Shown piece by piece: positions 17,202 to 38,661 of a stretch of 64,000 nt of DNA. Position numbers and translations under genes: made by a program. Under the pieces are notes generated by a model that saw only the letters and a list, made by a program, of their open reading frames with translations, was not told the origin of the DNA and made no database searches. The stretch lies in sequence record DRR723986_576. One strand, given 5' to 3'. Each line of letters starts with the position of its first letter. Position 1 is the stretch's first letter.

Positions 17202-17939
17202 CTATTCGCTCAGGCGCTTGCTCAAGGCGATCTGACTGCGTTTGCGCACGCGAATATTGAGTATTTCCACCGCAAAGGAAAACGCCATCGCAAAGTAGAT
17301 ATAGCCTTTGGGAACATGAACATCGAGGCCCTCGGCCATCAGCGTCAGGCCAATCATCAGCAAAAATGACAGGGCGAGCATTTTGATAGTGGGATGACGG
17401 TCGACAAAATTGCCGATGGGTTTTGCCGCAAACAGCATTACCGCCACCGACACCACAATGGCGATCACCATCACGGAAATGTGGTCGACGAGGCCCACGG
17501 CGGTGATCACCGAGTCCAGCGAGAACACCATATCCAGCATCGCGATCTGCACCATCACCGACGCAAAACTGGCCGACACTGGCGCCGTGCTGGTTTCGTC
17601 GCTAATCTCCAGACTTGCATGGATCTCGTGGGTGGACTTCGCCAGCAGAAATAAGCCGCCGACCACCAGAATGATATCGCGCCCCGATATCTCTTGCCCG
17701 AACGCCACGAACAAGGGCTCAATCAGGCCCATAATCCAAACCAAACTAAACAACAGCCCCAAGCGCGCCAACATTGCCAGAGCCAAGCCCAGGCGGCGCG
17801 CTTTCTCACGCTGCGCCGCCGGCAGTCGACCCACCAGGATCGAGATAAAAATAATATTGTCGATACCCAGCACGATCTCCAGTGCAACGAGTGATGCCAG
17901 GGCAACCCAGGCCTCGGGGCTCGCGATCCACTCAAACAT
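17202..17939 (-). CDS. TerC family membrane protein
   Basis: LEIVLGIDNIIFI and DMVFSLDSVITAVG motifs. Start set at MFEWIASPEAW (17939). Confidence 0.92.
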   Translation of the reverse strand: MFEWIASPEAWVALASLVALEIVLGIDNIIFISILVGRLPAAQREKARRLGLALAMLARLGLLFSLVWIMGLIEPLFVAFGQEISGRDIILVVGGLFLLAKSTHEIHASLEISDETSTAPVSASFASVMVQIAMLDMVFSLDSVITAVGLVDHISVMVIAIVVSVAVMLFAAKPIGNFVDRHPTIKMLALSFLLMIGLTLMAEGLDVHVPKGYIYFAMAFSFAVEILNIRVRKRSQIALSKRLSE

Positions 17940-18080
17940 GATCAATACTCGCAATGGGAAAACGCTGAGCATAGCGCGACATCCGCGAGGCGCAAATACA
18001 CAGTGGAGATTCCGCAACAAAATCCTTATAAAGCGCGCCGTGACTTGCGATAATTCCGCGCCAACCCCGCCGGAGAGCTT

Positions 18081-18824
18081 ATGAACCCGCCCCCCGTCGC
18101 ACTGATTACCGGTGCCAGTCAGCGCATAGGCGCAACCATTTGTCGCAAACTGCACACGCAGGGCTACCGCGTGATTATTCACTGCCGCCGCGAAAGCGCC
18201 GCTGGCACGGCCCTGCTCGAAGAGCTCAATCAGCAGCGAAGCGACTCGGCCGTTATGCTGTACGCCGATCTGGAAAAGATCGCCGATGTGGAGCGCCTGG
18301 CCAGCGACGCCCTCGCGCAATGGCAGCGGCTGGATGCCTTAGTCAACAATGCTTCTGGGTTTTACCCGACGGCGCTGGGCGAGGTAAGCGAGGCCGACTG
18401 GGACAGCCTGCTGGGTAGCAATGTCAAAGGCGCATTCTTTCTCAGCCAGGCACTGGTTCCGGCGCTGCGCAAGCACCGCGGCGCCATTGTGAATATTGTC
18501 GATATCTACGGCGACAAACCCCTGCAGGGCCACCCGGTCTACAGTATTGCCAAGGCTGGCTTGGCAATGATGACGCGATCACTGGCGGTGGAGCTGGCAC
18601 CGGACGTACGCGTGAATGGCATTGCCCCCGGCGCAATATTGCCGCCGGTAGCCAGCGATGCCTTTGGTGAGATCGAACAGCGAAATGTGAGTGAGCGCGT
18701 GCCATTGCAACGCTGGGGGAGCGCCGCAGATATTGCCGGCACAGTCTGGTTTTTGCTCCAAAGCGATAGCTATATCAACGGCCAGATTATTGCCGTTGAT
18801 GGCGGGCGCAGCATCTCGATATAG
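18081..18824 (+). CDS. Pteridine reductase / FolM-like SDR
   Basis: TGASQRIG, NNAS, IVNIVD, YSIAK catalytic motif and RVNGIAPG. Confidence 0.88.
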   Translation: MNPPPVALITGASQRIGATICRKLHTQGYRVIIHCRRESAAGTALLEELNQQRSDSAVMLYADLEKIADVERLASDALAQWQRLDALVNNASGFYPTALGEVSEADWDSLLGSNVKGAFFLSQALVPALRKHRGAIVNIVDIYGDKPLQGHPVYSIAKAGLAMMTRSLAVELAPDVRVNGIAPGAILPPVASDAFGEIEQRNVSERVPLQRWGSAADIAGTVWFLLQSDSYINGQIIAVDGGRSISI

Positions 18825-18838
18825 CCGCAATAACCGCC

Positions 18839-18858
18839 TTAGGGCATGTGAACACTAA
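18839..18858 (+). repeat. 20-bp dispersed repeat, copy 1 (IS5/MITE-end-like)
   Basis: TTAGGGCATGTGAACACTAA; 17/20 identical to the copy at 54181. Confidence 0.5.
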
Positions 18859-18862
18859 TAAG

Positions 18863-19012
18863 TGGGCATCCCTTCCCATGGGCGAACTTCCTGGCCGGCC
18901 CGGTTCCACGGCGAAGTCCCTGTGACATTCGCAAGCGACACACTTCTCACCGCAGACATTCACTGCCGACCTAACAAGCAGTGAATGTGGCGGGACGGGT
19001 TTGCCCAGCGCC
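18863..19012 (-). ncRNA. Candidate structured non-coding RNA (~145-150 nt), family not recognised
   Basis: End-closing stem, 11-bp perfect hairpin, G(CUUG)C tetraloop stem and a fourth stem. A TATAGT -10 and a palindromic operator lie just upstream on the minus strand. Confidence 0.55.
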
Positions 19013-19041
19013 AAGACTAACTATATAGTCGAGGCTCTACC

Positions 19042-19057
19042 TCCCCAAAACTGGGGA
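19042..19057. promoter_or_regulatory. Palindromic operator TCCCCA-N4-TGGGGA, probable site of the adjacent LuxR-type regulator
   Basis: Perfect 6-4-6 inverted repeat, 16 nt upstream of minus-strand TATAGT (19025-19020). Confidence 0.6.
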
Positions 19058-19112
19058 CGGCGAAAGGAGTCGCTGTTCACTGCCAGGGATGCACCGGCGC
19101 AATGAAAAATAC

Positions 19113-20228
19113 ATGGACAACGACAGACTGTCGCAGCTCATTGGAGAGCTCTATCGCCACGCGGATCAGGCAGACGGCTGGCTAGCCTTTTTCTCACTGC
19201 TGGAATCGGACATTCCCACCCGCTCTACCACCTTAATGCTGGAAAACACGCAGGAAAAAAACGGCGACGTTATGCTGAACCGGCATATCGACGAGAGCGA
19301 TATGCAAAGCTATATCGATTACTACCTCAAGCGGGATGTCTGGTCGGCCGAGCTGATTAAACGCCCGCCGAAAAAATTTCACGGCAGTCAGGAACTGTCG
19401 GACAAAGCCTTGCTAGCCTCTGAATTCTACGCCGACTATGCACGCCCCGCCGATGTTCGCCATGCTTGCGGCGCTTATATAGAAGACCCAAGTCAGGGGC
19501 GGGCGTTTCGCGTTACCCTGCAACGCAGCCACAGTCACCAGCCCTTTAGTCGCGACGAGCTGACCTCTCTGGATGCCTTTGTCCCCCATATTCAGAACGC
19601 GCTGGCCATTCACAAGCGCAATATCGATGGCGAAATTACCCGCATGGGCCTGGAGGCGGTAGGACGAATTGTCGATAGCGCGGCCTTCTTACTCAGCCCA
19701 AGGGGCGAACTGCTGTCTCACAACAGCATGGCAGAAGCGCTACTGAAACGTGGCATTGCCCTGCATCGCGGTCGTCAACTGCGTTTCAACCACCCACAGC
19801 TGGATCGTCACGCCGCGCAACTTTTCAATGACTTGATGGCGTTTACCGACAATAAACAACGCCAAGCGCGCCGCTTTGCCCGAATTGGCGACAGCGACAA
19901 TGGCTATCAAATGAGTGTGGAACCCTGGCTGATTCCGTCGATACGGCCCGGTTACCAGGAGCTTGGCGCACTGCTGCAGCTCAAACCCAACACCTTGCGC
20001 AGTCAATTGAGCCACCAGGGCTTGCGCAAGCTATTCGGCCTTACCGCTAGCGAGGCCAGCGTTATTCAGGGCCTGGCAGACGGCTGCTCAGCGGCAGCCA
20101 TTGCCCAGCAACTGGGGGTGAAAGAAAGCACCGTGCGCAGCCACATTAAATCCAGCTACCAAAAGCTGGGCGTGGGCAAACAGTCGGAACTGCTAAGCGT
20201 GGTGTTTTCTTCCCTGGCCCGGCTTTAA
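19113..20228 (+). CDS. LuxR-family HTH transcriptional regulator with N-terminal GAF/PAS-like sensor region
   Basis: C-terminal FGLTASEASV...IAQQLGVKESTVRSHIKSSYQKLGVGKQSEL; no receiver domain. Start could alternatively be 19089. Confidence 0.88.
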   Translation: MDNDRLSQLIGELYRHADQADGWLAFFSLLESDIPTRSTTLMLENTQEKNGDVMLNRHIDESDMQSYIDYYLKRDVWSAELIKRPPKKFHGSQELSDKALLASEFYADYARPADVRHACGAYIEDPSQGRAFRVTLQRSHSHQPFSRDELTSLDAFVPHIQNALAIHKRNIDGEITRMGLEAVGRIVDSAAFLLSPRGELLSHNSMAEALLKRGIALHRGRQLRFNHPQLDRHAAQLFNDLMAFTDNKQRQARRFARIGDSDNGYQMSVEPWLIPSIRPGYQELGALLQLKPNTLRSQLSHQGLRKLFGLTASEASVIQGLADGCSAAAIAQQLGVKESTVRSHIKSSYQKLGVGKQSELLSVVFSSLARL

Positions 20229-20585
20229 TTAGCGGTTCAGTACGTCGTCGCGCACACTTTCCGCAATATTGGCCACTTCCTGAATATCACTGTCGCCCAC
20301 GCCCAGCTCTGACAGCGTGGCGGCCAAGTCTTCAACAACGGCGTTGAAGTGCTCATCGTTCAAGCCCATACCGGCGTGTGCGTTGCGCATGTCCTCACCG
20401 GTGTAATCATTGGGGCCACCAAACACCATGGTTAAGAAGGCTTTCTGTTTGCGGGCCTGGGCGAACATATCAATATTTTCAAAGAAGCTATTGATGCGCT
20501 CATCTGCCAGCACCTTTTCGTAAAAAATATCCACGGCCTTGTCTACCGCTGCTTCGCCACCTATGCGCTCATATAGTGTTGTCAT
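20229..20585 (-). CDS. Group I truncated haemoglobin (trHbN/GlbN-like)
   Basis: TLYERIGGEAAV, FYEKVLAD, GGPNDYTG and proximal His (MRNAH); 118 aa from ATG 20585. Confidence 0.93.
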   Translation of the reverse strand: MTTLYERIGGEAAVDKAVDIFYEKVLADERINSFFENIDMFAQARKQKAFLTMVFGGPNDYTGEDMRNAHAGMGLNDEHFNAVVEDLAATLSELGVGDSDIQEVANIAESVRDDVLNR

Positions 20586-20601
20586 TATCTCTCTCCGATT
20601 A

Positions 20602-20624
20602 AAGATGCATAATAAATGCATGTT
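20602..20624. promoter_or_regulatory. NsrR binding site
   Basis: AAGATGCATAA-T-AAATGCATGTT, an 11-1-11 inverted repeat resembling the gammaproteobacterial NsrR box, between the divergent globin and Rrf2 genes. Confidence 0.8.
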
Positions 20625-20674
20625 TTGAGGCGCTATAATAGCCACGACTCCAGTGTCAGGTAAAGGGCTGATAG

Positions 20675-21100
20675 ATGAAATTAAGTAAACATACGGACTA
20701 CGCCTTTCGCAGCCTGATATTTTTGGCGGGGCAGCCGCCGGGGCAGCGCGTTACGATTCAGGATATTTGCGACTTTTACAGCATTTCCCCGAACCATGTA
20801 TCGAAGGTCATCATGCAACTGGTGCGCAGGGGTGAGGTTGAATCTGTGCGGGGGAAAGGTGGTGGTCTGAGTTTGGCTAAGGCCCCTGAGGACATCGCGC
20901 TGCTGGACATCGTAAAAGAGTTTGAAACCACTTTGCAGCCGATCAACTGTGCCGAGCAGCCCTGCAGGATTATGGGCGACTGCGCCTTACAAGGACTGCT
21001 GGGCAACGCCGTGGGCGCCTTCCTGGAAAGCCTGGCACCCTACACGCTCGCCGATATTACTAGCAGCGAGGTGCAGGTACTGCGCCTACAGGCTGATTAG
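20675..21100 (+). CDS. nsrR: Rrf2-family NO-sensing repressor
   Basis: [16 protein letters not shown] and three Fe-S Cys (C-x4-C-x5-C); cognate box upstream. Confidence 0.8.
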
Positions 21101-28563: not shown

Positions 28564-28592
28564 AAAAAAAGCCGCGACCAGCGCGGCTTTTT
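28564..28592. terminator. Bidirectional intrinsic terminator downstream of rpmG
   Basis: A7-GCCGCG-ACCAG-CGCGGC-T5. Confidence 0.85.
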
Positions 28593-38636: not shown

Positions 38637-38661
38637 GCGGCGGAGGCTGAGCCTCCGCCGC
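38637..38661. terminator. GC-rich hairpin between convergent crc and rph
   Basis: GCGGCGGAGGC-TGA-GCCTCCGCCGC, an 11-bp stem with weak U tracts. Confidence 0.6.

Follow-up and report, generated by a model that had tools for sequence, protein, structure and literature searches.

The gene for the small RNA (sRNA) VqmR adjoins vqmA, and the activator sites known as lux boxes are centred roughly at -42. VqmA, a receptor of Vibrio cholerae that combines a PAS domain with a LuxR-type helix-turn-helix (HTH), has an sRNA gene as its main target, according to two preprints (bioRxiv 10.1101/2021.04.15.439952; 10.1101/2019.12.19.881847); it binds AGGGGGGATTTCCCCCCT in PvqmR (bioRxiv 10.1101/2021.04.15.439952). 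For symmetric sigma-70 promoters that fire in both directions, 23 bp is among the enriched spacings of the divergent starts and 18 bp is the commonest, in the work of Warman et al. (bioRxiv 10.1101/2020.01.31.928960). A locus that can be set beside these systems lies in a 64,000-nt piece of DNA from a marine bacterium (record DRR723986_576, hereafter the window), where the gene for a LuxR-type regulator (19089-20228, plus strand) stands next to a stem-rich stretch of 150 nt (18863-19012) that would be read on the minus strand. A sequence-only reading had taken the two for a self-contained module of a regulator and an sRNA, the RNA being the regulator's sole target. Comparison with relatives favors another account: the window from 18863 to 19088 would be the shared control region of two divergent units, the regulator gene and a lipoprotein operon that has since been lost, and the stretch would be a remnant of it and not an sRNA gene. 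The probability of this account is put at about 0.6.

The stretch is housed in a 264-bp gap between two plus-strand genes, 18081-18824 and 19089-20228. Two sets of genomes were compared with it: those of 41 relatives, by BLAST with the 264-nt intergenic query, and 28 from the genus, for the regulator and for a covariance model (R1) built from the element. The query matches three of the 41, namely G001 at 97% (query 35-264), G015 at 96% (40-258) and G018 at 79% (166-233 only). An exact 24-nt pattern from the element matches Spongiibacter marinus DSM 17750, 'Neomelitea salexigens' DSM 19753 and the metagenome contigs L022 and L023, the sites in the first two coinciding with G001 and G015. The window and G001 are closer to each other than either is to G015, differing at 12 of 272 fourfold sites, as compared with 31 of 273 between the window and G015. 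In the set of loci, L004 is that of G001, L026 that of G015, and L027 and L007 that of G018. The features of the gap and its flanks are as follows.

18081-18824, plus strand: pteridine reductase gene of the SDR type (NCBIfam PRK09135, 335.8 bits against a cut-off of 288)
18823-18858, no strand: 36-nt filler or deletion scar in the place of 2,689 bp present in S. marinus (window aligned to G001 by BLAST)
18863-19012, minus strand: stem-rich stretch of 150 nt, the proximal third of an upstream or leader region of about 490 nt in relatives, orphaned here (fold and synteny)
18956-18988, minus strand: perfect 11-bp hairpin with an 11-nt loop, arms 18956-18966 and 18978-18988 (inverted-repeat search)
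19089-20228, plus strand: regulator gene, 379 amino acids (aa), with a GerE HTH at residues 318-370

In G001, G015 and G018 the stretch is followed, on the strand of the proposed RNA, by an open reading frame (ORF) for a lipoprotein with thrombospondin type-3 (TSP_3, calcium-binding) repeats and a lipoprotein signal (…LVACGGGG…). The counterparts of the stretch in G001 and G015 are 96-97% identical to it and precede this ORF on the same strand, its start lying about 330 nt beyond the element. The operon in both encodes the lipoprotein, of 533 aa, and a secreted protein of 226 aa, which has a signal peptide and matches no family. The same pair of genes occurs in G018, where the shared DNA is limited to the promoter block plus some 20 nt and the leader takes a different fold. 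Neither protein is encoded anywhere in the 64-kb window (tblastn). Against G001, the window is colinear from 19099 to 18859 at 96.7% and from 18822 to 17001 at 98.4%, with the filler between. On the right the deletion is bounded by the stop codon of the reductase gene, an edge common to all three relatives.

Because the operon is kept in G001, in G015 and in the more distant G018, the state of the window is most parsimoniously a loss. The loss is not an artefact of assembly, since L022 and L023 share the deletion junction (colinear with the window at 98.96% and 98.41% over 4,024 nt) and contigs from RNA libraries span it (X14 record 1, 17956-20400, without gaps; X15 record 4, 18713-18882). The sequence-only reading had named the orphaned leader of a deleted gene as its alternative, and the exchange of 2,689 bp for 36 bp bears this alternative out; the notion of an RNA that is the regulator's sole target gives way before the protein-coding operon that relatives carry on the same strand. 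On the evidence of the compared loci it is settled that the stretch is the promoter-proximal part of the control or leader region of the deleted lipoprotein operon. With a same-strand operon in the relatives and its deletion here, the stretch would accordingly be a remnant. The approximately 490 nt before the lipoprotein ORF contain no operon promoter at consensus level in G001 or G015, and a scan limited to the consensus found no terminator-like site before that ORF (L004 1-700 and L026 2500-3301). For this reason we infer that the stretch was formerly the first part of the leader of the lipoprotein gene.

Several properties of the lipoprotein cassette (L004 271-2959) can be noted alongside. 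The lipoproteins of G001 and G015 share 87% identity with each other and 83-86% with that of G018; the adjacent regulator is 99-100% identical among the window, G001 and G015 and 78% identical to that of G018. The distal leader cannot be aligned between G001 and G015. Compared with the flanking DNA, the cassette changes or is exchanged much more rapidly; with the element at one border and the stop codon of the reductase at the other, it resembles a surface-protein cassette that recombines or diversifies. Across 14 loci, the divergent partner of the regulator gene is a TSP_3 lipoprotein in six and a small lipoprotein or a Cys-rich protein elsewhere.

The conserved promoter of the region points away from the stretch. 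Upstream DNA was read at 15 regulator loci, leaving out L019, which is fragmentary and has two stop codons, and L020, located at a contig end; the alignment is also without the paralogue G021b, which is 42% identical and has no such motif, and its final 15 sequences are 14 loci and the window. The arrangement TTGCYC-N17-TATAGT-N12-palindrome is found on the plus strand in 14 of the 15, G018 being off by one base of the palindrome, and TTGCYC-N17-TATAGT itself is present in all of them. Conservation ends at the -35 box, and nothing upstream of it is kept in the other 11 orthologous loci. The elements in the window are listed here.

19001-19006, plus strand: -35 box TTGCCC of the regulator promoter (promoter scan and 15-sequence alignment)
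19020-19025, minus strand: mirror TATAGT as a candidate -10 box, with TTGGGG at 19048-19043 and a 17-nt spacer (by reading; weak, 8/12)
19024-19029, plus strand: -10 box TATAGT of the regulator promoter, 17-nt spacer (promoter scan and alignment)
19036-19037, plus strand: predicted start of the regulator mRNA, 7 nt past the -10 box
19042-19057, no strand: palindrome TCCCCA-N4-TGGGGA, probable operator (position conserved in 14 of 15, G018 one base off)

The regulator promoter scores 9/12 consensus matches and is the sole consensus-level promoter found by the scan in the region, in the window as in G001 and G015; it lies on the plus strand. Judged from the alignment, the conserved -35/-10 pair is that of the regulator gene's predicted sigma-70 promoter and faces this gene, not the proposed RNA. 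On the minus strand, TTGGGG-N17-TATAGT falls below the threshold of the promoter scan. The sequence ACTATATAGT is palindromic, so TATAGT can be read on both strands. In the genus its form is ACGGTATAGT, and the minus-strand TATAGT is confined to the window, G001, G015 and G018; other species have TATACC, TATAGC, TATAAC or TATACT. The minus-strand hexamer thus exists because ACTATATAGT is palindromic in this clade. The -10 box that had been assigned to the RNA is present, but the reading of it that is conserved is the plus-strand -10 box of the regulator gene.

From its sequence, ACTATATAGT could work as a partner in a bidirectional promoter. Like the symmetric promoters described above, it offers TATAGT on both strands, and the two predicted starts are separated by about 23 bp. 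Unlike them, it has support for the plus-strand start only (a contig end), and its minus-strand hexamer is specific to the clade.

The palindrome lies 12 nt beyond the -10 box, at about +6 to +21 of the predicted regulator transcript. Perfect palindromes of the 6-N4-6 kind are common whatever their sequence (26 in the window as against 22 ± 4.9 in simulations), so this one matters only through its conservation. The exact motif occurs once in the window, once in the G001 genome and once in the G015 genome. The genus form, TCCCCA-N5-GGGGA, is found at the regulator locus in five of five further genomes; beyond that locus three more sites occur, G010 having two of them and G002 the third. In the X14 strain the palindrome varies in its spacer only, at 19048 and 19051. 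The earlier suggestion that it is a dedicated site fits its being unique in both close genomes (2/2), and the palindrome is, from these comparisons, the probable operator dedicated to the regulator.

Other features of the control region have also been noted. The palindrome may instead form a hairpin in the 5' untranslated region of the regulator mRNA; the arm mismatch of G018 (TCCTCA…TGGGGA) would be a U.G pair in a plus-strand RNA. Outside the clade of the window (L008-L018), AATCTA or its complement recurs three times per control region: once in the middle of the palindrome (CCCCAATCTAGGGG), once between the two promoter boxes (TTAGATT) and once immediately before the -35 box (AAATCTAG). This may be a second binding motif.

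These observations suggest how the control region could work. The regulator would bind the genome-unique palindrome and control its own transcription, and a site so placed (about +6 to +21) points to repression. Being palindromic, the ACTATATAGT of this clade would in addition supply a weak promoter on the minus strand, TTGGGG-N17-TATAGT, which would start transcription near 19013, placing the predicted divergent starts (19036 and 19013) 23 bp apart. This weak promoter would once have made the long lipoprotein leader. It would now make at most an untranslated, unterminated transcript running antisense into the reductase gene, on which any minus-strand transcript of the stretch would converge. 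Loss of the remaining leader and of both genes has left the promoter-proximal 150 nt beside the convergent reductase gene. The arrangement is like that of autoregulated regulators of the LuxR/GerE family in having a GerE-type HTH and a dyad site, unique in the genome, in the intergenic region that the regulator gene shares with a divergent target operon. It is unlike theirs in that the regulator has no acyl-homoserine-lactone-binding domain and the divergent partner gene differs between species. The palindrome is centred at about +13 relative to the regulator start and close to -37 relative to the candidate divergent one, which is also unlike the position of a lux-box activator site.

A number of findings weigh against seeing in the stretch nothing but a remnant. 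For example, G001 and G015 are 96-97% alike over the element and can no longer be aligned by about 15 nt past its 3' end, and the deletion in the window begins 4 nt past the closing helix. From its sequence the element behaves like a discrete unit, ending sharply where conservation and deletion both end. Between the window and G015 it differs at eight of 150 positions, about half the divergence of fourfold sites (31/273), although by estimate this lower divergence is only borderline. All five transitions in stems (18959, 18985, 18978, 18949 and 18886) stay paired on the minus strand, through G.U pairs or a compensating change. The pair 18985/18959, for instance, is U-A in the window, U.G in G001, L022 and L023, and C-G in G015. 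Within the deleted lineage the regulator shows eight and ten nucleotide differences from L022 and L023 and no amino-acid change. A regulator under purifying selection with a unique operator may mean that something nearby is still worth regulating.

A rival account sees in the element a structured RNA with a function of its own. It would be transcribed from the minus-strand side of a bidirectional promoter controlled by a PAS-LuxR regulator, the 5' domain of the former leader having been retained or given a new role as a trans-acting or antisense RNA. In its favor, the closing helix, the conservation between G001 and G015 and the intact sequence next to the deletion all end at one sharp 3' boundary, five of five stem transitions suit minus-strand pairing, and the regulator has no amino-acid change in the deleted lineage beside an operator unique in the genomes of close relatives. 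A spacing of 23 bp is among those of the symmetric bidirectional arrangements in the preprint cited above (bioRxiv 10.1101/2020.01.31.928960), and the best structural neighbors of the regulator, in a low-confidence model, include VqmA, whose main target is an sRNA gene. Weighing on the other side, three stem changes in G015 disrupt pairs, and the covariation that had been proposed as a check is not significant (four distinct sequences, 0 pairs changed on both sides, 369 of 500 shuffles as good). The minus-strand -10 box is not kept outside the clade. Co-occurrence also fails: R1 matches two of the 28 genus genomes, G001 and G015, with one copy each, leaving 26 without the element, whereas the regulator is present in 16 of the 28 (17 matches). 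R1 finds no match in G018, G006, G011 or G021, and the genomes without the element include four further loci at which this lipoprotein is the divergent neighbor of the regulator. A terminator-like 3' end is missing as well, a consensus scan of the minus strand from 18400 to 19400 giving none, as in the scans of G001 and G015. On balance a functional RNA is improbable, and it is equally doubtful that regulator and RNA form a VqmA/VqmR-like module caught forming, in which selection would have preserved the entire element, once the 5' domain of the lipoprotein leader, through the deletion of the operon.

The fold of the stretch bears on the same question. The elements that the sequence-only reading listed (the palindrome at 19042-19057, the 16 nt that follow, TATAGT at 19025-19020, the 11-bp hairpin, the pairing of the ends and five GGA motifs) all lie where it placed them. 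The end pairing, from 19007 to 18863 on the minus strand, is the outer helix of the minimum-energy fold. Two inner helices that it proposed, UCG(CUUG)CGA and GACUUC.../...GAAGUU, can be drawn by reading but are not those of that fold. The window has three perfect hairpins of at least 11 bp with loops of 3-15 nt, where 100 first-order Markov simulations give 0.5 on average; the remaining two, at 28566-28592 and 38637-38661, are possibly terminators. The minus-strand fold has an energy of -65.3 kcal/mol (z -2.04, seven of 200 shuffles equal or better) and the plus-strand fold one of -57.9 kcal/mol (z -1.96, six of 200). Fold energy is only marginal, then, and alike on both strands, with z near -2 on each. 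G.U pairs make up nine of the 53 minimum-energy pairs, a better fit to the minus strand that speaks for an RNA.

The five GGA motifs (first G at 18919, 18907, 18891, 18876 and 18871) place the stretch in the top 1.3% of the 150-nt tiles of the window (mean 1.32 per tile), another point in favor of an RNA. In the minimum-energy fold one of them is in a hairpin loop, one in a junction and three inside helices. A sponge for CsrA/RsmA had been considered on the strength of these motifs. The stretch is like CsrB, RsmX, RsmY and RsmZ in its enrichment in GGA and in having one AGGA located in a hexaloop. It is unlike them in having no Rfam match, only one of five GGA in a hairpin loop and no terminator-like site, and the sponge proposal is not upheld. 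An upstream box of the GacA type was not seen on reading the sequence.

Known families of RNA do not account for the stretch. Rfam gives no match in the whole window at gathering score, and the proposed check thus returns no family. With E up to 10, the interval 18780-19100 yields two matches at chance level, the L31 leader (14 bits) and HOTTIP (9.7 bits), with E of 0.3 and 1.8. The whole G001 leader gives no match with E up to 1. No known cis-regulatory RNA or riboswitch (Rfam 15) is therefore matched by covariance model in the window or the G001 leader. A 75-aa Cys-rich ORF on the minus strand (18787-19014) was also examined and judged non-coding, having no Pfam match and no ribosome-binding site that could be seen. 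G001 carries an ORF of equal length, and in G015 a C-to-A substitution gives an in-frame TAG, as read from the alignment.

VqmA/VqmR is the closest known system if the stretch is taken for a functional RNA. By analogy the regulator would be like VqmA in having a PAS-like sensor domain or domains (the PAS part resting on a low-confidence model) ahead of a C-terminal LuxR/GerE HTH, and in having a palindrome of G/C runs as a dedicated site beside its own gene; the candidate RNA, like VqmR, is about 150 nt and untranslated. The regulator is unlike VqmA in its 379 aa with apparently two PAS-like domains. Its palindrome is of the opposite polarity to the VqmA site (C-run then G-run) and lies downstream of the regulator gene's conserved promoter. 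The candidate RNA, unlike VqmR, is without a terminator, is absent from most genomes that have the regulator and is followed in relatives by a protein-coding operon. Membership in this system fails on terminator, regulator co-occurrence and operator placement. A full-text search of the Spongiibacter literature gave, in the titles and abstracts of the matches listed, nothing on the regulator, the lipoprotein or sRNAs.

The conservation of the stretch can also be explained without any transcript. An untranscribed element at the level of DNA could be regulatory DNA from -35 to about -175 of the regulator promoter, with the 11-N11-11 inverted repeat and other symmetric sites bound by protein, or could contain the true activator-dependent promoter of the lost operon. 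The stretch starts exactly at the -35 box of the regulator, and minus-strand TGGGCAA, the first arm of the closing helix, is that very -35 box. Its conservation is similar to that of the promoter/operator block (8/150 and 5/76 differences between the window and G015), the energy of its fold is about equal on both strands, and no consensus operon promoter was found in the roughly 490 nt. A symmetric two-sided change in the 11-bp repeat would be expected of a dimeric DNA-binding protein as well. Against this, nothing upstream of the -35 box is conserved at 11 other loci, which argues that the regulator promoter generally needs no such DNA, and the intermediate states are of the G.U type on one strand only, which is relevant to RNA and not to DNA. 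A DNA-level element is on these grounds unlikely.

A miniature mobile element (MITE- or REP-like) inserted beside the regulator gene, its terminal inverted repeats being the closing helix, is close to refuted and has a very small probability. The ends of the element are imperfectly complementary over about 16 nt and the element is restricted to one small clade, as such an insertion could be. It is a single copy in G001 and G015, by BLAST and by the covariance model, and its left 'terminal repeat', TGGGCAA, is the genus-wide -35 box, present at loci that lack the element. No target-site duplication was seen by reading, and the abutting 36 nt are unique. What had been described as a MITE-like end is this filler, which at up to three mismatches matches only itself in the window and nothing in G001, G015 or G018.

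The one firm domain of the regulator is the C-terminal LuxR/GerE HTH at residues 318-370, in keeping with the earlier assignment to the LuxR type, and a domain scan did not find an autoinducer-binding (acyl-homoserine-lactone) domain. Among its Atlas neighbors, 10-16% carry PAS or GAF. An AlphaFold model from 11 orthologues (pLDDT 61.7) has two alpha/beta modules, a long helix and the HTH. The best Foldseek matches of this low-confidence model are VqmA (7dwm, E 4e-6; 6kju, 6ugl and 6ide), PpsR, bacteriophytochromes and EL222, all with low TM scores (0.2-0.37, in the comparison with VqmA 0.23-0.37); phmmer against the Protein Data Bank matches the HTH only and does not find VqmA. From the model and the Atlas neighbors, the regulator would be a sensor-type protein of the LuxR family with PAS-like domains, apparently two.

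Contigs from RNA libraries touch the predicted starts. The metatranscriptome contig X16 record 10 (3,540 nt) begins at 19037 and runs through the regulator gene, and X15 record 5 begins at 19054. The end of the X16 contig agrees with the predicted regulator start; coming from one study, and since contig ends cannot prove RNA ends, it is a weak hint. The sole contig confined to the region is X16 record 9 (18887-19040, 154 nt), and it extends 28 nt upstream of the proposed minus-strand start, which counts against an RNA that begins there. Libraries X15 and X17 have bins without cover inside 18824-19075, where gaps in contigs prove nothing and depths cannot rank genes.

Two observations concern the genes on either side. 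A TerC-family ORF of 372 aa with a TTG start (17202-18320, minus strand) shares 240 nt with the beginning of the reductase gene; its Pfam match begins only at residue 143, and its true start is probably further in. Beyond the regulator, genes for a truncated globin (20229-20645, minus strand) and for an Rrf2-family regulator (20675-21100, plus strand) are arranged back to back, a pair that resembles those of the nitric-oxide-response type.

The favored reading is an ordinary one, an autoregulated sensor-type gene of the LuxR family beside the stump of a deleted surface-lipoprotein operon. It carries a caution, in that a palindromic -10 box such as ACTATATAGT together with a stem-rich remnant can mimic a regulator-sRNA pair. 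If the remnant were a regulated RNA after all, it would be a clean natural example of an sRNA gene arising from an mRNA leader.

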